Source: an uncultured Gemmatimonadota bacterium (GTDB taxonomy: Bacteria > Blakebacterota > Blakebacteria > Blakebacterales > Blakebacteraceae). From it: a stretch of 64,000 nt of DNA. The stretch lies in NCBI GenBank assembly GCA_964576115.1, contig CAZNUA010000006.1:1-64000 (forward strand). The letters are read 5' to 3'. The notes beneath the pieces were generated by a model, which saw nothing but the letters and a program-made list of their open reading frames with translations, was not told the origin of the DNA and searched no databases. This document shows, piece after piece, positions 1 through 8,047 of this stretch. A program made the position numbers and the translations under genes. Within the stretch, counting starts at the first letter, position 1. Each line of letters starts with the position of its first letter.

Positions 1-945
1 GGTCAACAAATCGCGTCTCATCCGGGCAATCTCGCGATCTATCCCGCTGCTCTCGCGAACACGACGCTTCGCCTCATCGATCAGCCAGCGTCGTTCCCGT
101 GCCGGGACTGATTCAGGCGGCTGATCGAGTTCCATGCGTCCGAGATACCGCCAGGTGGCATCATAGCGGTGAATGACGGGGTGTCTGCCGTCACTGAGCA
201 GAATGCCCTGCTCGAGCGAGTACGCGGAACACGGGTACCCCGGGAAACGAACCAACCAACCATGCCGGCGGTTCGGCTCACTGGAGATATAGCCCGCGAT
301 CGAGATCGTCACCTGATCGGTCGTGGTGTGAAACAGCGTGTCACAGTCGGCGTTCACGATTGTCGCAGCGGCACACTGGGTGCCGTATTTCGGGTCCTGG
401 TCGTTGAGATGGTTGAGGAGCAGCTGACTGCCACCGCTCAGTCGGAATCGATCGGGAACATCCATCCCGTGGGGGCGGGGTCTTGTCAGGACCTCGATGA
501 CAGAACCGTCGAGGTGCAGGCGGGTGGTGCGACGCATCAGGACATCCTGGATGTGCAGGACATCGTCATGCAGGCCCTGGAAGCCCAGGTGACGGTAGGC
601 CCCCGGACCTCCGCCCTCGCTGCCGAAGCTGCGCACGTACTCGCCCTGGTCGTTGAATACCGCCACCCGGTGGTTCCCCGAGTCGATCACGTAGTAATTG
701 CCATCCGATCCCCGCGTGAACTGCCCCGGTCGGTGGAGGAGTGACTCGGCCTTGGACGGATCCTGATTCAGGCGGAGGACTTCCCGGTACTCGAACAGCG
801 GCTCGAGGTATCCGGGCCCGCCTCTGGTGAGCGCAATACTCAGGCCGTCTTCCTGTACGATGCTGAAGGAATGCTGAGGATTGCCCTGAGGTGCAGGTTG
901 TGCAAAGAAGGTACAGAAAACGAGAAACACGATCGTATCGAGCAT
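1..945 (-). CDS. 6-bladed beta-propeller (NHL-like) secreted protein, 3' end runs off the window
   Basis: Absent from the ORF track because there is no stop in the window. Manual translation from ATG 945 gives MLDTIVFLVFCTFFAQ...TRGGPGYLEPLFEY...DGNYYVIDSGNHRVAVFNDQGEYVRSFGSEGGGPGAY. GGAG precedes the start. It is clearly paralogous to 6794-8047. Confidence 0.8.
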   Translation of the reverse strand, partial: MLDTIVFLVFCTFFAQPAPQGNPQHSFSIVQEDGLSIALTRGGPGYLEPLFEYREVLRLNQDPSKAESLLHRPGQFTRGSDGNYYVIDSGNHRVAVFNDQGEYVRSFGSEGGGPGAYRHLGFQGLHDDVLHIQDVLMRRTTRLHLDGSVIEVLTRPRPHGMDVPDRFRLSGGSQLLLNHLNDQDPKYGTQCAAATIVNADCDTLFHTTTDQVTISIAGYISSEPNRRHGWLVRFPGYPCSAYSLEQGILLSDGRHPVIHRYDATWRYLGRMELDQPPESVPARERRWLIDEAKRRVRESSGIDREIARMRRDLLT

Positions 946-1057
946 GGCACTCTCCCCGGGGAACGACGAATAGAGGCAGGCTCTTGTTTATCTCGGGGGC
1001 ACATGCTTTTGCATGATTATCCGGGTATTGGAGGTGATCGTCCGCCGGCCGGCTGGA

Positions 1058-2104
1058 TCAGGACCGCGGCATCAGTTTCACGATGTGCGGGTAGGGCTGG
1101 TTCCAGAGCATCCAGACGACAAGAGTGCCGTTCTCGAGCCCGACCGTGAATTTGATCGGAGAGGGATACTGCACCTCCGGTGGGGTGGGAAACGAATAGC
1201 TGTGCACGATGTATCCTCTTGTGTCAATTTCAACGAGGCGTTGTCCGACGAGTCTGGTCAAGAGGACAAACAAACGGTCTCCGAGAAACATCGACTGCCG
1301 GGTGATGTTGTAGGGGGGCGGCCGGTCATCGTCGTCGGTCGGCCAGTCCCGCGCCTTGTCCCGGTTCTCGCGGTCGGCCCTGATCACGTCTCTGTCCCGG
1401 ATATGAATGACGCTCTGAGATGTGGGCGTAATGAGCAGAACATCGTTGAACACGCTGTAGGTGTAGCAGCCGATCAATGCGCCCTCTGATCCCACGGTAA
1501 TATGCATGGATCCAAGCCTGTGGATCCTCCTGCCAGCGGGGCCGACCTCTCGATCCGGATGCTCGCCGAATGAAAAGAGCAGTTCACCCTGCGCATTGAA
1601 GGCATGGATGATCTCAGGCCGATGCTCGTCGAACGTAGCCATGTAGAGCGTGTCGTGTATGGCCTGCAGGTGAACTCCCCGGATCACATCTCGGATGAAA
1701 CCATGAGAATACGACCAATTTTCCTGGTCAAAAGCCTGCAGCTTGTTTCGATCCCTCACCCATAAGAGGTGCGTACTCTCATCGAAAGCCGCTTCATCAG
1801 GAAAGGAGAATTCACCCGGACCCTGGCCTTGCCGGCCGACCTGAGCGACCAGTTCTCCTTCCTCATCCACGATCCAGACGACATGCTGCATCCAGTCGAC
1901 GATGGCGACTCTCTGATCGGGCAGTAATTCGAAATCGTTCGGAGTGGCCAGGTAATAGTCGGGATCGTCGCTATCGGGCGGGGGGAATCGCAGGACCTGT
2001 TCCAGTACGATGTCATTGGCCGGCCTGGAGCACGATACAGAGCCTCCCAGGAGACCGGATGCGATCAGGAGACAGACCGGGATGCGAGGAATCGGTGAAC
2101 GCAA
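1058..2104 (-). CDS. 6-bladed beta-propeller protein, probable lipoprotein
   Basis: 348 aa ORF with a TTG start after GAGG, a hydrophobic N-terminus ending SVSC, and the motif GELVAQVGRQGQGPGEF. Confidence 0.8.
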   Translation of the reverse strand: MRSPIPRIPVCLLIASGLLGGSVSCSRPANDIVLEQVLRFPPPDSDDPDYYLATPNDFELLPDQRVAIVDWMQHVVWIVDEEGELVAQVGRQGQGPGEFSFPDEAAFDESTHLLWVRDRNKLQAFDQENWSYSHGFIRDVIRGVHLQAIHDTLYMATFDEHRPEIIHAFNAQGELLFSFGEHPDREVGPAGRRIHRLGSMHITVGSEGALIGCYTYSVFNDVLLITPTSQSVIHIRDRDVIRADRENRDKARDWPTDDDDRPPPYNITRQSMFLGDRLFVLLTRLVGQRLVEIDTRGYIVHSYSFPTPPEVQYPSPIKFTVGLENGTLVVWMLWNQPYPHIVKLMPRS

Positions 2105-2203
2105 TACACGCCTCGTGGGTCATATCCGACAATGGTGGAGCCAGCGGTGACAATACCCGTGAAAACGCCGCTCATCAAGGGCTTCGCGGCTTCGTTCAGA
2201 CCA

Positions 2204-2212
2204 TGCTATACT
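2204..2212 (+). promoter_or_regulatory. Putative extended -10 promoter for the FG-GAP gene
   Basis: TG-c-TATACT lies ~50 nt upstream of ATG 2265. A GGAGG RBS sits at 2255-2259. Confidence 0.45.
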
Positions 2213-2264
2213 AATTGCCGGTACTATTCCGCCTCCCCGCTCTATTCAGCCCCTGGAGGTCGCC

Positions 2265-3590
2265 ATGTTATCCACGGCTGTTCTTCTGCTCGTTGCAACC
2301 TGTTCGACGCCCCTGCCCCAGGCACCCGACACCTCCCTTTTCGCCGAACCCTTCCAGCTGATCGTGCAGGGTTCGCCCCTCGAGGCCGAGCAGGGCTATC
2401 CCGCTCCCCTGCCGGTCGACTTCGACGGCGACGGACTCTTCGACCTGCTGCTGGGCCAGCGCAGCCCGCGCGGTGGCGAACTGCTCATCCATCTCAACCA
2501 GGGTACGCCGGAGCAGCCGGTCTTTTCAGAATCATCACTCTTCGAGGCCGCCGGAGCGCCGGTGCGCATTCCGGTCGGGTGAAACGAGGGCGGATTCGCG
2601 CCACAGTTTGTGGACGCCAACGCTGACGGACGTATAGATATCGTTGCCGGAGTCATCGACGGTATCCAGGTCTGGCCGCAGCTCGAGACCGGCGAGTTCG
2701 GCTATCCCTATCTGTTGATCGATACTTCCTACCTCAATTTCGAGACCTATCAGGTCGAGGATCCCTTCAGAAATCTTAGCGACGGCGGCATCGCCGGTTC
2801 GGTCCGTCCCTGGCTGGCCGACTGGAACAGGGACGGCATTCTGGATGTTCTCTTCGGAGATACGGTCGGGCACGTCTATTTCTATCCCGGCACGGGCGTG
2901 AGTGACGGTCAGCTCAGATTCGGCACCCCTGAACGGCTGACGGTCGCCGGCGAGGAAATCTGCGCCGAGCACGGCATGTCCTCGCCCTGCGTGAACGACT
3001 GGGACGGAGATGGCCGGGATGACCTGCTGCTGGGCTCGCATGTCGGCAGCGTGCTCTTTTTCCGGAACACGAGTGCTGACGGCGTGCCTGTGCTGGCCGA
3101 ACCGGTCGTTCTTGTCCCCAGCGCCGGCGCCCACAGGATCGATCCGCGGCACTTTGAACCGGGTCTGGACCGGGGCCGGAACATCTGGGTCAGCGTCGTC
3201 GATTACAACGGCGACGGCTTATCGGACCTGCTCCTGGGCGCTCATCATGTCACCGAGGCCGAGGAGCGGGAGCTGACCCTGGTGGATCAGGCCCGCCGGG
3301 ACCTGGCCTGGGACCACTACGGCAGGATCGACCTGGAATTCTGGGAACGATACCGTCAGCTGTTCCATCGCGTTCTGCGCCGCCTCAAACTGCCCCGGGA
3401 TGACTGGGGCGAGGACAGGGTCATGGCCCACCATGCCATGGATGAACTCATGCTCGCCGCTCGCGGCGACAGAAAGATGCAGGCCATACTCGAACGCCTG
3501 CGCGATGCGGCTCTGCCCCTGCGGGAATTCAGGGCGTATGGCACCTGGTACGGCCGGGTGTGGGTCTATCTGCGCCGGCCCGGCTCATGA
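2265..3590 (+). CDS. Secreted FG-GAP/VCBS-repeat protein with an in-frame TGA at 2580-2582 (candidate selenoprotein)
   Basis: ORFs 2265-2582 and 2610-3590 are in the same frame, reading ...RIPVG-TGA-NEGGFAPQFVDANADGRID. There is an N-terminal signal/lipobox-like segment (LLLVATC). Five DxDGDG-type repeats are present: DFDGDGLFD, DANADGRID, DWNRDGILD, DWDGDGRDD, DYNGDGLSD. Confidence 0.75.
2598..2617 (+). promoter_or_regulatory. Putative bacterial SECIS hairpin
   Basis: GCG-CCACA-(GTT)-TGTGG-a-CGC forms an 8-bp stem with one bulged A. The loop G is 24 nt after the TGA. Confidence 0.5.
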
Positions 3591-6500
3591 ACCGGGCGGC
3601 GGTCGTTCCAGACGGGCGTTTGTCACGTACGGTTCCAGGCGGATTGCGCGCCGGATGGTCCTGTCCGCCGTCAGATCGGTGACTTCGATCGCGATCAGGT
3701 AGGCTTCGGCCGGTTCGTAGGCCTCAAAGAGAATCCGGTTCTCCTCGGTCGCCCGGGTGCCGATCCCGTCACGCTCGAAAATCAGGCGTACGCTCCCCTC
3801 CTGGCGCTCGGTCCCGATCAGCCGTCCCAGCGCTTCGATGACCGGCGAGGGTGTTTCTCCTCCCACAGCGGTCGTCTCGATGGCCAGCCGGTAGTGATGG
3901 GCGCGGTAGTCGTCGAGCTCGAGACCGTAGATCTCGAGATAGAGATAGAGCGGAGCGTCGTAGTGGAACCGGTCACTGAGAGCCGGGATGATGGTCCGCT
4001 CCCCGCGGGTCAGATAGGTACCCGGAAGCATGTCCCCGCTCTCTTCTCGGGCTCTGATCTCTTCGGCCGCTACCAGGCTCGACAGACGCAGCGGCCCTTC
4101 AACGGCCAGGTCGATGGTATCCCGGCCGGCATAAGCCGGTCCGGCCCCGGGGGGCAGGACTTCCATGGCTCCGAAGAGATGTTCGCCGGTGATCCACTCC
4201 GGTTCGAGTCGAAAGGGTTCGGTGATCAGCGGCAGGGAGCGGTCGGCCATGAACAGCCAGGCGGGCAGAACCAGTTCGCGCCGGGTCAGGGGATTCCAGG
4301 AGTCATCGAGAATGGTCATCTGGGCCGAATAGCCGGTCATGGTATCGCCGAGGGCACCGATGAGGCGCGGTTTGGGAAACTGGGCGTGCAGGTAGAGTTC
4401 GGTCTGGCCGGCCCGGTTTTCGAACCGGTACCAGCGCAGGCCCAGATCGAGTTCCGCGGTATCGATGACCTCGCGGGCTCCGGTCACCCGCGGTGATTCG
4501 GGGACGACTTCGATCAACTCCCGGAAGGACTGCTTGTAGGGCAGGATCCGGTTGCCGGTGAGCATGCCGATCATGAGCGGAATGCGGAAGCCGTCGTAGT
4601 ACCAGTACTCCATCTGCACCAGACCGAAGGAAGACGCCTGGCCATGGATCGAGAACTCGTCCGGGACATCCTGTTCCTCGTACCGGCGGAATAGCCGGCG
4701 GCGTTCGACCTCTTCGGTTGAGAGCGGTTCGCCGAAACGCATGTAGATCCGCCCCCGATCGGTGTCCCAGCCGGCCAGACCGAGCTGGGGGACGGCGTAA
4801 TACCAGGTCACGTGCGCAAAGCGCCGGTACTGTTCCATCAGGCGTTCGTTCAGGTCGGTTCCGAAGAGCGGATCGCGCGAGCGCCAGAAGGTTTCTGGAT
4901 CGACAGCGCGCTCGGTCTGGATCGAGACCCCCCCGGTGAGTTCGAAACCGCCCTCGGACAGCGGCAGGGTCCAGCGGGGATCCCGGGCGATGACACGCAC
5001 CCGGTCGGTCAGACGGGCGATTCCCTGCTCATAATCGGCCATGGCCGCCTCGAGCCAGCCGATGTTCTGATAGGCCAGACCGCGGCCCAGGTAGGCTTCG
5101 GCCGGATGGGCGCCATGCGCGACGAGATAGTCCATGATACGGATCACCTCGACCCACCGGCCGGTCAGCATGTGGTGCAGCCCCAGCCACCAGGTGGCGA
5201 AGGCGTTATCGGGATCGAGCAGCAGGGCGCTGTTCAGATAGGCCAGAGCCTCGGTTTCCTGTTCGGATCTGGAACCGGTCATGCCGGCCAGGGGGGTGCC
5301 CCACCCTCCGGCGCGCCAGCCCAGGTGCCAGATGATCTCGAGGCGCAGTTTGCCTTTCAGGGCGTGGGCATCGGCCACCGATGCCGTTTCGGCCAGGATG
5401 CGGTCCAGGGCACGGTTGCCGTAGCGGTCGAAGGTGCGCTGGAACTGGACTTCGGCCAGGGTGAGAAGATAGCGCAGGTTGTCGGGGTCGAGCCGCAGGG
5501 CGGTGCGGATACTCGTTTCGGCCATCTCTCGTCCGCCCGGCTCGCCCGACTGCATCAGGGCCCGGGCATCCAGATTCCAGGCCTCGCTGTTGGCCCGGTA
5601 CTCCGAGCGCAAGAGCGGCTGCAGGAACTCATGGGCCGCCAGGGGCTCGTCGGCTTCGATCAGAGCCCGGGCGTCAGCCAGCGGTCCGGTATAGATTGAA
5701 TCGGCCGCCTCGGCGGTGAGCCAGCCCCGTCCGGCAAGGAGTTCCGCATCCCCTTCGGCCGACTGCTGCAGTTCCTCGACGATCTCGGCCGGAAGAGTCG
5801 CAGCGGGATCGTAGGGGATGGCGATCTGGTGGGTCAGGTAGAGTGAATCGGCGGCCCCGGCATACATCTTCCGGTCCAGAGCCAGCGCCCGGACCCGCTC
5901 CCGGAAACGCTGGCCGTATCCATACTCGGCCCGCATCCTCGAGGAATCCACCTCGGCCGCAACCAGGTCGAACTCCCCGTTCTCGTCGGCTTCGGTCACT
6001 GTCAGGGGACAGATGGCGGCTGCCAGGCTCTGCCGGATACGGGGTTCGGCCGCTCCGCCGGCACCGAGCAGGGCCTGCAGGGCGTGATGGCCGGGATCGG
6101 CCCGCAGGCGCCAGATGCAGGCAAGGCGCAGTTCGGTGGAGGCGTTCTCGTCGGCGACCCGGGTCGCGAGTTCGGCGCAGTCGGCCGGCGTCAGGTGAGG
6201 CAGGGGTGGGAAGGGATTCGGGCTTTCGTCGTCGAAGACGTGATGCCCCCACCGGTTGCGGGTGAAGATGAAGCAGTAGGCCAACTCGTCCAGCAGGGGG
6301 TGGCCGGAGATTTCGTCGGTGAGGGGAAAGGGAGGTTCATAGAACCAGAGCACCTGGGCGTCTTGCTGCCCCAGCGGGATCTCGCTCGTACGCGTCGGCG
6401 AGCCGTGGAAGACGCGGGGGATGACCCGGTAGTCGGGAGTGATCGTCCACCCCGAGAGCAGCGAATCCCAGACCGCCGTCAGACGGGCTTCGATCAGGTT

Positions 6501-6797
6501 GCGGTATTCGTTCACCCCGTTGCCGGGAAGCGGATCGCGCTCGATCAGGAACGAATCGAGGAGGCTGCGGACCGAGTCCGCCCCCATATGCCAGAATTGA
6601 CTGTAATCATACGCCGGTATCTCGGGATCGGCGTAGTGCAGCAGGGCGCAGAGGCGTCGTTCGTACTCGGGCACGTAGGAGCCGGGCGGAGCCCGGTAGC
6701 GCAGAGTGCAGGCCGTCGATCCCGCAGCTGTGAGCAGCCCGAGCACCAGCAGTGTCCGGCGCCCGCAGGAGTATCTCTGCCGCCGGACCGGGTTCAC
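3585..6797 (-). CDS. GWxTD-domain protein with TPR-like repeats, probable lipoprotein
   Basis: Contains FWRSRDPLFGTDLNE...GWDTDRGRIYMRFGEP and TPR-like helices (ALRLDPDN, ALLLDPDN, AYLGRGLAY). The likely start is GTG 6797, overlapping the upstream TGA, followed by LLVLGLLTAAGSTAC. Confidence 0.8.
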   Translation of the reverse strand: MNPVRRQRYSCGRRTLLVLGLLTAAGSTACTLRYRAPPGSYVPEYERRLCALLHYADPEIPAYDYSQFWHMGADSVRSLLDSFLIERDPLPGNGVNEYRNLIEARLTAVWDSLLSGWTITPDYRVIPRVFHGSPTRTSEIPLGQQDAQVLWFYEPPFPLTDEISGHPLLDELAYCFIFTRNRWGHHVFDDESPNPFPPLPHLTPADCAELATRVADENASTELRLACIWRLRADPGHHALQALLGAGGAAEPRIRQSLAAAICPLTVTEADENGEFDLVAAEVDSSRMRAEYGYGQRFRERVRALALDRKMYAGAADSLYLTHQIAIPYDPAATLPAEIVEELQQSAEGDAELLAGRGWLTAEAADSIYTGPLADARALIEADEPLAAHEFLQPLLRSEYRANSEAWNLDARALMQSGEPGGREMAETSIRTALRLDPDNLRYLLTLAEVQFQRTFDRYGNRALDRILAETASVADAHALKGKLRLEIIWHLGWRAGGWGTPLAGMTGSRSEQETEALAYLNSALLLDPDNAFATWWLGLHHMLTGRWVEVIRIMDYLVAHGAHPAEAYLGRGLAYQNIGWLEAAMADYEQGIARLTDRVRVIARDPRWTLPLSEGGFELTGGVSIQTERAVDPETFWRSRDPLFGTDLNERLMEQYRRFAHVTWYYAVPQLGLAGWDTDRGRIYMRFGEPLSTEEVERRRLFRRYEEQDVPDEFSIHGQASSFGLVQMEYWYYDGFRIPLMIGMLTGNRILPYKQSFRELIEVVPESPRVTGAREVIDTAELDLGLRWYRFENRAGQTELYLHAQFPKPRLIGALGDTMTGYSAQMTILDDSWNPLTRRELVLPAWLFMADRSLPLITEPFRLEPEWITGEHLFGAMEVLPPGAGPAYAGRDTIDLAVEGPLRLSSLVAAEEIRAREESGDMLPGTYLTRGERTIIPALSDRFHYDAPLYLYLEIYGLELDDYRAHHYRLAIETTAVGGETPSPVIEALGRLIGTERQEGSVRLIFERDGIGTRATEENRILFEAYEPAEAYLIAIEVTDLTADRTIRRAIRLEPYVTNARLERPPPGS

Positions 6798-8047
6798 GGG
6801 TAGGTCCAGCCTTCGATTGCAGAAGCGATCGCAAAGGCGACCGGGGCTGAGTCGCCGGTGGCCTGATCGTAGGTGATCAGACAGAGCTTGCCGCCCGACA
6901 GGCGCATTGATCTGTAGAGACCGGTCGGGACCCTGGCAGTGCCCAGGTACTCCCCCTCCGGGGACAGGATGTGGAACCGGCACTGCCCGGTGATCGCTTC
7001 AGTCGTAAAGGAATACACGTCCTGCAGCCAGATGTAGCCGAAATCATCGACCAGGGCCTCGTTCCAGAATCCGATCTCGTCGACGAAAAAGTACAGGGAG
7101 CGATCGATGTCGACGGGTGTTTCTATTCCATGCCGTTCATAGGCCAGCCGCAGACCCGCCTCCAGATCCCGCCAGTAGGCCGCTTTGACCTCCGCGGTCA
7201 CGGGCAGAAGCGGCAGGTCGAGCACGATGTGCAGGGTCAGATCCCCGGAGGTGTCGTGCCAGGTCAGTTCGGGCCGGCGGCCTGAGGTGATCAGGATTCC
7301 CCGGCCGGGAACCGGGAGGGCAATCGCGGAAGGGGAGAAACGCAGCTCCGTGATCCGGCGCCGGTTGTCATCCAGATAGGTGACCTTCGCCTCGGTGACC
7401 CGTTCGGTCATCAGGCAGGATATGGTGTCCCGGGTACCACGTCTGCCGATGAGCACTTCGCGCCAGCGTTGCCGGTACTCGGGCCCGGTGTCCGCGGTCT
7501 GCCGGACGTAGCCGACCAGATCGCCGTCGAGCGGCAGCATCAGCTCCGCCCGCCAGCCGGCCATGCTCCGGCACAGATCGGTCATGGTTCCGTCCGGGTC
7601 GAAAGCGATCGTCCGCTGCGTATCCCGGTCGAAGAGAACCAGTCGACCGTCGATGAAGCCGTGAAGTTCAGCCATCGAGGAGAGTTCGCCCGGTCCCTGC
7701 CCTTCCCGGCTGAAACTGCGCCGGTAGTCACCCCCGGATCCGAAGACCATGATCCGGCAGTGACCGGAGTCGTAGAGGAAGTACTCCCCTTCGGGGCTCT
7801 GGACGAAAGCCCGGGGACTGTAGAAGAGCGATTCCTCCCGCTCCGGATCTTCTTTCAGGGTATCGAGAGGCGTGAAGGTGAGGATGTCGCCGGCATATTT
7901 CGGTCCCCCCCGGGTTTCGGCGACGGGAACCCCCTCCTGACGGGTGACGCGGAAGGTGTGCCCCGGTTCGCCGTCGGGGCGGCTCTGACAGGCCGGCAGG
8001 ACGAGCAGGAGAACAACGGCCGGGATTGCAGGCAGACGGTACGGCAT
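6794..8047 (-). CDS. 6-bladed beta-propeller lipoprotein
   Basis: Lipobox LPAC, the motif YRRSFSREGQGPGEL, C-terminal VDDFGYIW...ILSPEGEYLG, and a GGAGG RBS. Confidence 0.8.
   Translation of the reverse strand: MPYRLPAIPAVVLLLVLPACQSRPDGEPGHTFRVTRQEGVPVAETRGGPKYAGDILTFTPLDTLKEDPEREESLFYSPRAFVQSPEGEYFLYDSGHCRIMVFGSGGDYRRSFSREGQGPGELSSMAELHGFIDGRLVLFDRDTQRTIAFDPDGTMTDLCRSMAGWRAELMLPLDGDLVGYVRQTADTGPEYRQRWREVLIGRRGTRDTISCLMTERVTEAKVTYLDDNRRRITELRFSPSAIALPVPGRGILITSGRRPELTWHDTSGDLTLHIVLDLPLLPVTAEVKAAYWRDLEAGLRLAYERHGIETPVDIDRSLYFFVDEIGFWNEALVDDFGYIWLQDVYSFTTEAITGQCRFHILSPEGEYLGTARVPTGLYRSMRLSGGKLCLITYDQATGDSAPVAFAIASAIEGWTYP

Follow-up and report, generated by a model that had tools for sequence, protein, structure and literature searches.

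A putative FG-GAP propeller selenoprotein with an internal UGA in an uncultured Gemmatimonadota bacterium and its relatives in Planctomycetota

The window analyzed here is a 64,000-nucleotide stretch of contig CAZNUA010000006.1 from an uncultured Gemmatimonadota bacterium (assembly GCA_964576115.1), and its forward strand carries at positions 2265-3590 a coding frame interrupted by a TGA at 2580-2582. We infer from the comparison of homologues that this UGA very probably encodes selenocysteine (Sec, or U in protein sequences). The fuller interpretation, which is also probable if slightly less so, holds that the region is a single gene for an extracytoplasmic FG-GAP/VCBS propeller, whose UGA would be translated as Sec through SelA, SelB, SelD and tRNA-Sec under the direction of a stem-loop in the coding sequence. 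Homologues carry TGA or cysteine at the corresponding column, a covarying stem-loop specific to the TGA forms follows the codon, and the genome holds the complete Sec machinery.

The in-frame UGA and its conservation

The frame running from the ATG at 2265 to the TGA at 3588-3590 has the TGA at 2580-2582 as its sole interruption, as a preliminary description of the window had stated, and its read-through product comprises 441 amino acids (P0001), with the stop in the context RIPVG-U-NEGGFAPQFVDANADG. That description expected standard annotation to split the gene in two, and the open reading frame (ORF) listing does return separate ORFs of 105 and 326 amino acids. The second would start, as had been claimed, in the middle of a repeat: its GTG at 2610 lies within the DxDxDG motif of the second FG-GAP repeat. 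The six-frame search described below retrieves the 2265-3590 gene as one match to itself, labelled '1 TGA'. The closest database proteins are likewise C-terminal pieces that cover the post-stop part alone—P0002 (326 amino acids, 94% identity), P0003 (327 amino acids, 45%) and P0004 (328 amino acids, 39%), each spanning 73-74% of the read-through product—which was a first hint that their genes, too, are broken at this point. The TGA is genuine and no assembly slip. The preliminary description had proposed to confirm this codon by mapping reads, and contigs from four public runs of three studies cover 2494-2773 or 2200-2773 with no letter differing there, while carrying strain variants at 2297-2493 and 2774-2852; two of these runs may be the assembly's own source, and the other two are not marked as such. 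The principal elements of the gene are as follows.

2255..2259, + strand: Shine-Dalgarno-like GGAGG, 5 nt ahead of the ATG (sequence inspection)
2265..3590, + strand: complete predicted selenoprotein gene of 441 codons plus a TGA terminator, with UGA-Sec as codon 106 (single frame; homologues align over residues 1-441)
2580..2582, + strand: in-frame UGA, very probably read as selenocysteine (U106) (column conservation; Cys homologues; no variant in contigs of four runs)
2598..2617, + strand: hairpin GCGCCACA-GUU-UGUGGACGC resembling a selenocysteine insertion sequence (SECIS), over codons A112-D117 (RNAfold; the homologous 6-bp stem covaries and is specific to TGA forms)

When 61 related genomes were searched in all six frames, G001 yielded three homologues with a single in-frame TGA, G008 two, and G002 and G043 one each, and every fetched homologue from this search has the TGA in the same motif, VP-x-G-U-C-[IM]-G-F-x-P-Q-F-V-D-L-N-G-D-G. 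A second family copy with one TGA is present in the window's own genome (G000:C36:25873-26820, - strand, equivalent to L033:1468-2502). This paralogue of 345 amino acids, with an LAGC lipobox, the site HPS-U-C-I-G-F-T-P-Q-F-V-D and no helical insertion, is a typical member of the family.

For a broader view of the column we searched one genome per species with the family alignment A1, which gave 80 further loci, the best of 331 confirmed matches; in total 100 locus rows, each represented by its best frame, entered an hmmalign alignment to the A1 profile. The column residues in the 100 rows are U in 60, M in 12, G in 6, A in 5, a gap in 5, C in 2 and others in 10. Without rows L038 and L039, which overlap L025 and L028, the count is 59 TGA loci among 98 distinct ones, at 24-38% identity to the query. 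Planctomycetota make up most of the carriers (among them Gemmataceae, Pirellulales, Phycisphaerales, Sedimentisphaerales and Brocadiaceae/Kuenenia), and further carriers belong to Verrucomicrobiota, WOR-3, Aegiribacteria and the window organism's own lineage. The usual family motif is VP-x-G-U-C-[IV]-G-F-x-P-Q-F-V-D, with G-U-C-[IV]-G-F, N-W-U-C-I-G-M, V-W-U-C-T-S-S and Y-G-U-C-T-G-A as sub-motifs at the Sec site. Of the 59 TGA loci, 54 have a cysteine directly after U, the exceptions being L021 (the window's gene), L041, L044, L101 and L104. An even sample of 121 Planctomycetota genomes gave 43 with a match at E <= 1e-20; when one TGA per match is counted regardless of its column position, 54 of the 55 matches at E <= 1.8e-51 contain one (these lie in 29 genomes), and none of the 22 weaker matches does. 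Counted in the same manner, the planctomycete genome G061, which holds locus L043, has 24 profile matches at E <= 1e-30, 23 of them with one TGA. Two neighboring pieces there resemble a single gene spread over two frames, and the number of paralogues comes to approximately 22 to 23.

Several homologues replace the TGA with a cysteine codon, in line with the Sec assignment that the preliminary description had put forward. Full-length proteins with no stop include P0007 (NCCVGF, TNCCVGFTPQLVD), P0048 (SCCMGF, ASCCMGFGPQLVD), P0012 (GCYVGF, IGCYVGFIPQLVD) and P0024 (YCCIGS, IYCCIGSSPQFFD), and a further cysteine form, L116, is found in Kordiimonas gwangyangensis DSM 19435 (NZ_AQXF01000005.1; FCCVAA, NFCCVAAGPRMVD). 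Loci L024, L060, L079, L095 and L103 have Gly-Cys at the column (G-G-C-L-G and similar) and lack the hairpin; judging by these sequences, the dyad apparently keeps its second residue once Sec is lost. P0018, P0075 and P0115 have no cysteine at all at the site. The occurrence of Gly, Val or Met at the column in other relatives indicates that part of the wider FG-GAP superfamily does without the Sec site. The best 150 matches of a profile of N-terminal fragments (A5) among protein representatives are all giant multi-repeat FG-GAP proteins of 568-6941 amino acids, because scores sum over repeats, and the total of 70370 matches at E <= 0.001 describes FG-GAP repeats in general and not the Sec family. 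Querying the ESM Atlas with P0007 returned clusters named 'FG-GAP repeat' of 254-316 amino acids, which align from residue 113 or 91 onward and are probably fragments of TGA forms.

The genome (3.96 Mb, 144 contigs, 93.7% complete) contains all the Sec machinery that the preliminary description had proposed to look for: a tRNA-Sec at 66.2 bits (cut-off 47) with the anticodon TCA assigned by ARAGORN, and selB (320 bits), selA (479 bits) and selD (330 bits), all above their curated cut-offs. The selD match (G000:C45:1973-2665, + strand, L017) covers profile positions 1-234 of 311 inside an open frame of 918 amino acids and may represent a fusion protein. A selA gene above the cut-off was present in all eight other TGA-form genomes tested (G001, G002, G008, G043 and G061-G064), and also in G058, whose relatives are all non-TGA. 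No selA match was found in G065, the Kordiimonas host of the Cys-Cys form L116 and the one Cys-Cys-form genome tested. L116 retains the four inner pairs of the hairpin described below and may be a recent Sec-to-Cys conversion. Across the homologues, the Sec genes and the contigs, every refuting test named in the preliminary description turned out in favor of Sec.

A stem-loop within the codons of a conserved strand

In typical members of the family a 17-nt element, G-U-C-C-A-C-A-G-U-U-C-G-U-G-G-A-C, begins 13 nt after the UGA, so that its loop carries G at +24 and U at +25, counted from the first base of the UGA. RNAalifold applied to the 59 TGA sites (alignment A2) predicts the four innermost pairs, of which three show compensatory changes. 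Across the 6-bp stem 90.1% of cells are paired, compared with 30.7-46.3% when the 3' partner is slid by 1-3 columns. The stem has 20 double-change cells versus 4.5 +/- 1.8 in shuffles, none of 500 shuffles reaching 20, and its covariation score is 0.208 versus 0.125 in shuffles (0 of 500). Pair 33-41 is the clearest to read: it occurs as AU in 41 sequences, GC in 11, GU in 3 and CG in 1. Position 33 is the synonymous third base of a proline codon and varies with the middle base of the codon three positions further along, being A with GUG (Val), G with GCG (Ala) and C with GGG (Gly). The stem is also kept despite changed amino acids, as in Leu-Gln-Phe-Ala (GUCUGC/GCAGAC; L087, L093), Ile-Ala-Val-Cys (L070) and Pro-Cys-Val-Met (L051).

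Two controls help to tell RNA constraint from protein constraint. The four inner pairs form in 85% of 60 post-UGA motif matches (57 of the 59 loci matched the search pattern); in the other FG-GAP repeats of the same 59 genes they form in 6% of 379 and in 10% of the 131 that start with proline. Among loci, they are present in 53 of 59 with TGA (90%) versus two of 38 non-TGA homologues (5%; L077 and L116). In the window, RNAfold gives an 8-bp stem with G19-C38 paired (counting from the U of the UGA), a bulged A35 and a GUU/AGUUU loop, whose G27 lies 24 nt after the UGA. By sequence comparison this hairpin is the same element as the family stem-loop, displaced by a one-codon insertion.

Protein architecture, possible chemistry and alternative readings

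Pfam profiles matched the read-through protein as FG-GAP_3 (5.5e-20, 72.2 bits against a cut-off of 26.9, best stretch 186-255) and FG-GAP (3.5e-8, 33.6 bits against 22.1). The features of the protein along the gene are listed below.

2265..2303, + strand: hydrophobic N-terminus MLSTAVLLLVATC, probable signal peptide with possible lipobox Cys13 (by eye; predicted local distance difference test, pLDDT, 49-59 over residues 1-20)
2418..2435, + strand: DxDxDG loop of FG-GAP repeat 1 (DFDGDG); D52 and D56 invariant in alignment A3
2613..2639, + strand: DxDxDGxxD loop of repeat 2 (DANADGRID), right after the putative Sec loop; D121 and D125 invariant, D117 nearly so
2820..2846, + strand: DxDxDG loop of repeat 3 (DWNRDGILD); D186 and D194 invariant
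2997..3023, + strand: DxDxDG loop of repeat 4 (DWDGDGRDD); D245, D249, G250 and D253 invariant
3201..3227, + strand: DxDxDG loop of repeat 5 (DYNGDGLSD); D313, D317 and D321 invariant; Pfam FG-GAP at 308-327
3279..3527, + strand: long helical hairpin, residues 339-421, ahead of the last strand (AlphaFold2 helices 339-373, 385-401 and 403-421)
3546..3569, + strand: C-terminal strand YGRVWVYL, family motif HG-x-VW-x-x-LR; model strand 428-435; W433 nearly invariant

The AlphaFold2 model, built from a 56-sequence alignment, reached a pLDDT of 86.7 and a predicted template modelling score (pTM) of 0.82, and displays beta-strand blades around the five DxDxDG loops, followed by the helical hairpin—a segment missing from short paralogues such as L033-L035—and the final strand. 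Calcium binding is predicted from the DxDxDG motifs. U106 falls within the loop 101-113, just ahead of strand 114-116 (mean pLDDT 81 over residues 101-110), and in the family the Sec loop would sit just before the first strand of the second blade. The secondary structure of the model, combined with general propeller topology, points to a position on the propeller surface; in the integrin-type arrangement, the loop would presumably run from the fourth strand of a blade to the first strand of its neighbor, on the side away from the calcium loops. Foldseek retrieved FG-GAP propellers at a probability of 1.0, yet with template modelling (TM) scores of 0.28-0.35; the neighbors are the UmbA4 module, CRTAC1, the TcB propeller, fungal GlcNAc lectins and integrin alpha. 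Neither a thioredoxin-type domain (Pfam, NCBIfam) nor a CxxU or UxxC motif was found on the read-through product, the motif being U-C in the family and U-N-E-G in the window; together with the model and the Foldseek matches this bears out the earlier placement of the Sec residue outside any thioredoxin fold. Export signals recur in the family: signal peptides, lipoboxes (LAGC in L033, LAAC in L035) and type IX secretion system (T9SS) tails (Por_Secre_tail in L036 and L068). The proposal that the protein is secreted or lipid-anchored fits these signals of the family, and for the window's own protein it comes from inspection of the N-terminus by eye.

The surroundings of the gene include three ORFs resembling DUF5128-like six-bladed propellers, at 1-945, 1058-2104 and 6794-8047, all on the - strand. 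In a genome of the same order (L023; G008:C189, locus 799-3171) an FG-GAP TGA gene continues in frame, for 791 amino acids in all, into a 374-residue domain that is homologous to the window ORF at 6794-8047 over its full length (BLASTP E 2e-32, 28% identity). The same domain displays no significant similarity to the ORF at 1058-2104 (E 0.11). On these sequence relationships, a functional link between the putative selenoprotein gene and the DUF5128-like ORFs is possible. A convergent ORF of 1132 amino acids at 3585-6983 (- strand) contains TPR repeats and overlaps the last 6 nt of the putative selenoprotein gene; it also has a weak match to a GWxTD domain (E 0.0039, below the cut-off).

Clues to function come from protein fusions. 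DsbD_N (PF11412), the periplasmic carrier domain of the DsbD disulfide reductase, is fused above the cut-off in L054, L056, L058 and L069 at the C-terminus, in L073 at the N-terminus, and also in the Cys-Cys form P0024. All six fused copies retain C-x4-C followed by PP or similar. A local profile of the fused domains identified an nDsbD-like ORF beside L059 and another just downstream of L116, and the ESM Atlas contains one FG-GAP protein cluster with DsbD_N in 57% of its members. No DsbD_N was found in the window's gene or its flanks. The presence of fusions in different sub-motif groups and at either protein end suggests repeated fusion events, and the fusions themselves suggest a DsbD-fed Sec-Cys redox centre.

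The proposed course of events is then as follows. The region 2265-3590 would be expressed as one gene for a 441-residue extracytoplasmic FG-GAP/VCBS beta-propeller protein, the organism's SelA, SelB, SelD and tRNA-Sec decoding the UGA at 2580-2582 as selenocysteine, with the stem-loop at 2598-2617, lying within the coding sequence of the conserved PQFVD strand, directing this decoding. In typical members the Sec-Cys dyad would cycle between the selenol/thiol state and a vicinal selenenylsulfide, a DsbD-type electron relay would keep it reduced, and the oxidized substrate would be bound on the propeller. That the dyad is a redox centre recycled by such a relay is a tentative proposal, to which we give slightly less than an even chance. 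The window's copy has no adjacent cysteine and none conserved with its closest relatives P0003 and P0004 (its other cysteines are C227 and C240), so its chemistry may differ from that of typical members, and its Sec would work by itself or together with an external thiol.

Alternative readings concern both the decoding of the UGA and the role of the residue. Were the TGA at 2580-2582 a true stop, the locus would comprise two genes of 105 and 326 amino acids, or one gene killed by a nonsense mutation, and both the split made by gene callers and the database's exclusive holding of C-terminal pieces for the closest relatives would follow naturally. However, a nonsense mutation would not share its column in 59 loci of such low identity, nor precede a covarying hairpin missing from non-TGA homologues; the second ORF would start inside a DxDxDG loop and have no export signal, and one AlphaFold2 model folds both sides of the TGA into one confident domain. 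We consider a true stop very improbable. Marginally less probable still is the insertion of Trp, Cys or Gly without selenium, whether by a suppressor or near-cognate tRNA or by an alternative genetic code. The structured element specifically conserved at SECIS distance, the full Sec machinery and the tracking of TGA forms by selA in nine genomes tested all speak against it, even though read-through alone would keep the frame open too and the column holds Gly in six homologues and Cys in a few. UGA elsewhere in the genome is a stop: it ends 1696 of the 2512 open frames of at least 400 codons, selA, selB and selD have no internal stops, and the putative selenoprotein gene itself terminates in TGA right after the conserved C-terminal motif. 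On these grounds an alternative genetic code was rejected.

The principal rival to the redox reading accepts the same selenoprotein but makes Sec, with its neighboring cysteine, a ligand for soft metals or metalloids, serving to bind, sense or sequester Hg, Cu, Cd, As or Se species outside the cytoplasm. By analogy, adjacent Cys-Sec or Sec-Cys residues recur among the metal- and organometal-related bacterial selenoproteins of Table 1 in PMC13188914, such as SaoL, HgcA, MbdU and the CopZ-family forms, the window's Sec has no resolving cysteine, and the structural neighbors of the fold are binding modules. The recurrent DsbD_N fusions with their cysteine pair kept point instead to electron transfer, and no metal-resistance or transport gene recurs in the 106 flanking ORFs. 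We regard a ligand role as unlikely, while noting that it and the redox role are not mutually exclusive.

Several observations weigh against the reading of the region as a stem-loop-directed selenoprotein gene with DsbD-fed redox chemistry. The locus sample is biased, its profile having been built largely from TGA forms, and the Planctomycetota survey counts TGAs whatever their column. The window's copy is, by its sequence, atypical of the family, with U-N-E-G-G after the preceding glycine, no cysteine after U and a one-residue insertion, and its N-terminus, judged by eye, has no basic n-region. The hairpin pointed out in the preliminary description does exist, with its loop G at the stated distance and with homology to the TGA-specific stem-loop of the family, but its own stability is not evidence: its energy of -17.8 kcal/mol compares with -16.4 +/- 2.6 in dinucleotide shuffles, 55 of 200 of which fold as well, and a z of -0.53 makes the folding energy no evidence either way. 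An Rfam scan of 2480-2720 at E <= 10 gave no match. Since the hairpin lies inside the codons of a conserved peptide, part of its sequence conservation is protein constraint; the repeat and non-TGA controls address this constraint and do not remove it. With regard to chemistry, DsbD_N is fused in five of the 59 TGA loci, none of them from the window organism's lineage, and the structural neighbors (lectins, integrins, CRTAC1, Tc and Umb components) are binding modules and not oxidoreductases. No conserved gene neighbor was detected either: among 106 ORFs, the longest flanking one on each side of the 59 TGA loci, the commonest Pfam family occurs in four, which indicates that there is no operon partner.

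Relation to known systems

The closest precedent for the decoding is the SelB/SECIS system of genes such as E. coli fdhF, in which the SECIS loop positions are G23/U24. Shared with these genes are the in-frame UGA, the stem-loop in the coding sequence, the apical G/U at +24/+25 in typical members, the existence of cysteine homologues and the presence of tRNA-Sec, SelA, SelB and SelD. By contrast, the propeller family is not a redox enzyme of known type, its element has no Rfam match, and its 6-bp stem doubles as the codons of PQFVD. Such a hairpin within a conserved peptide motif would be a compact natural SECIS for possible recoding work, should its putative role hold.

Most catalogued prokaryotic selenoprotein families have a thioredoxin-like fold, and the known bacterial selenoproteins are for the most part redox enzymes with a thioredoxin fold or a metal cofactor, according to the 2026 review PMC13188914. 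None of the 119 prokaryotic selenoprotein families and subfamilies in Table 1 of that paper (Zhang et al. 2026) is given an FG-GAP, VCBS or beta-propeller domain (PF13517, PF01839). The propeller family resembles the entries of that table in its single Sec, in the alternation of Sec and Cys among homologues, and in an adjacent cysteine as in the CU or GxUC entries, which include MerB-like SaoL (CU), HgcA (CU), MbdU (CU), SaoC and the CopZ family (GxUC, CU). It differs in being exported and in reaching approximately 22 to 23 paralogues in one genome. No NCBIfam selenoprotein model matched the query or seven typical members, the lone match above the cut-off being a T9SS sorting domain in L068. 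Literature searches combining selenoprotein or selenocysteine with FG-GAP, VCBS, beta-propeller or Planctomycetota returned no relevant paper, some being judged from their listings. The terms FG-GAP, VCBS and propeller have zero occurrences in PMC13188914, deep-Sep (PMC12013277), 10.1101/2022.07.06.499078 (Haft), PMC2398784 (GOS) and PMC5029168 (Peng et al. 2016), whose supplements could list the family.

With the FG-GAP/integrin-alpha propellers (integrin alpha, Psathyrella velutina lectin, CRTAC1, UmbA4 and TcB) the protein shares the Pfam FG-GAP_3 and FG-GAP matches and the DxDxDG loops, but the TM scores are low, and the window's protein has five DxDxDG repeats, a helical hairpin and a closing C-terminal strand. 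We know of no FG-GAP or integrin-type propeller with Sec or a catalytic cysteine pair. Adjacent redox-capable residues are familiar from other proteins: mammalian thioredoxin reductase ends in Gly-Cys-Sec-Gly, and methanol dehydrogenase has a Cys-Cys disulfide ring beside pyrroloquinoline quinone (PQQ) on a Ca2+-binding propeller. The likeness is an analogy only—two neighboring redox-capable residues, in the latter case also on a Ca2+-binding propeller—and unlike those enzymes the family has the order Sec-Cys, no flavin or PQQ domain and no sequence relationship to either. DsbD-type reductases serve DsbC, DsbG, CcmG and envelope peroxiredoxins. The propeller family is extracytoplasmic like these substrates, and has fused DsbD_N domains with the cysteine pair kept, but it has no thioredoxin fold, and the fusion is seen in a small share of TGA loci and not in the window's gene.

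If the reading of these genes as selenoprotein genes is true, some Planctomycetota would be among the most selenoprotein-rich bacteria: in G061 a single family would add approximately 22 to 23 selenoproteins if all its TGAs are read as Sec. Selenium-based, DsbD-fed redox chemistry would take place at the bacterial cell surface on a non-thioredoxin scaffold, and the DsbD_N fusions make this chemistry directly testable. Because standard gene calling splits each family gene in two, annotations, selenoproteome counts and estimates of selenium demand would be too low in Planctomycetota, Verrucomicrobiota and several candidate phyla. An exported family of integrin-type propellers with calcium loops, at such copy numbers in one genome, would extend the range of roles known for selenocysteine. 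Taken as a whole, the picture of an uncatalogued, very large family of exported propeller selenoproteins with a vicinal Sec-Cys centre, present in approximately one quarter of the sampled Planctomycetota and performing DsbD-fed redox chemistry at the surface, is one that we advance provisionally, at just under even odds. The mechanism of insertion would be the ordinary bacterial one; the novelty, compared with the systems above, lies in the protein family and in its fold, location and scale.

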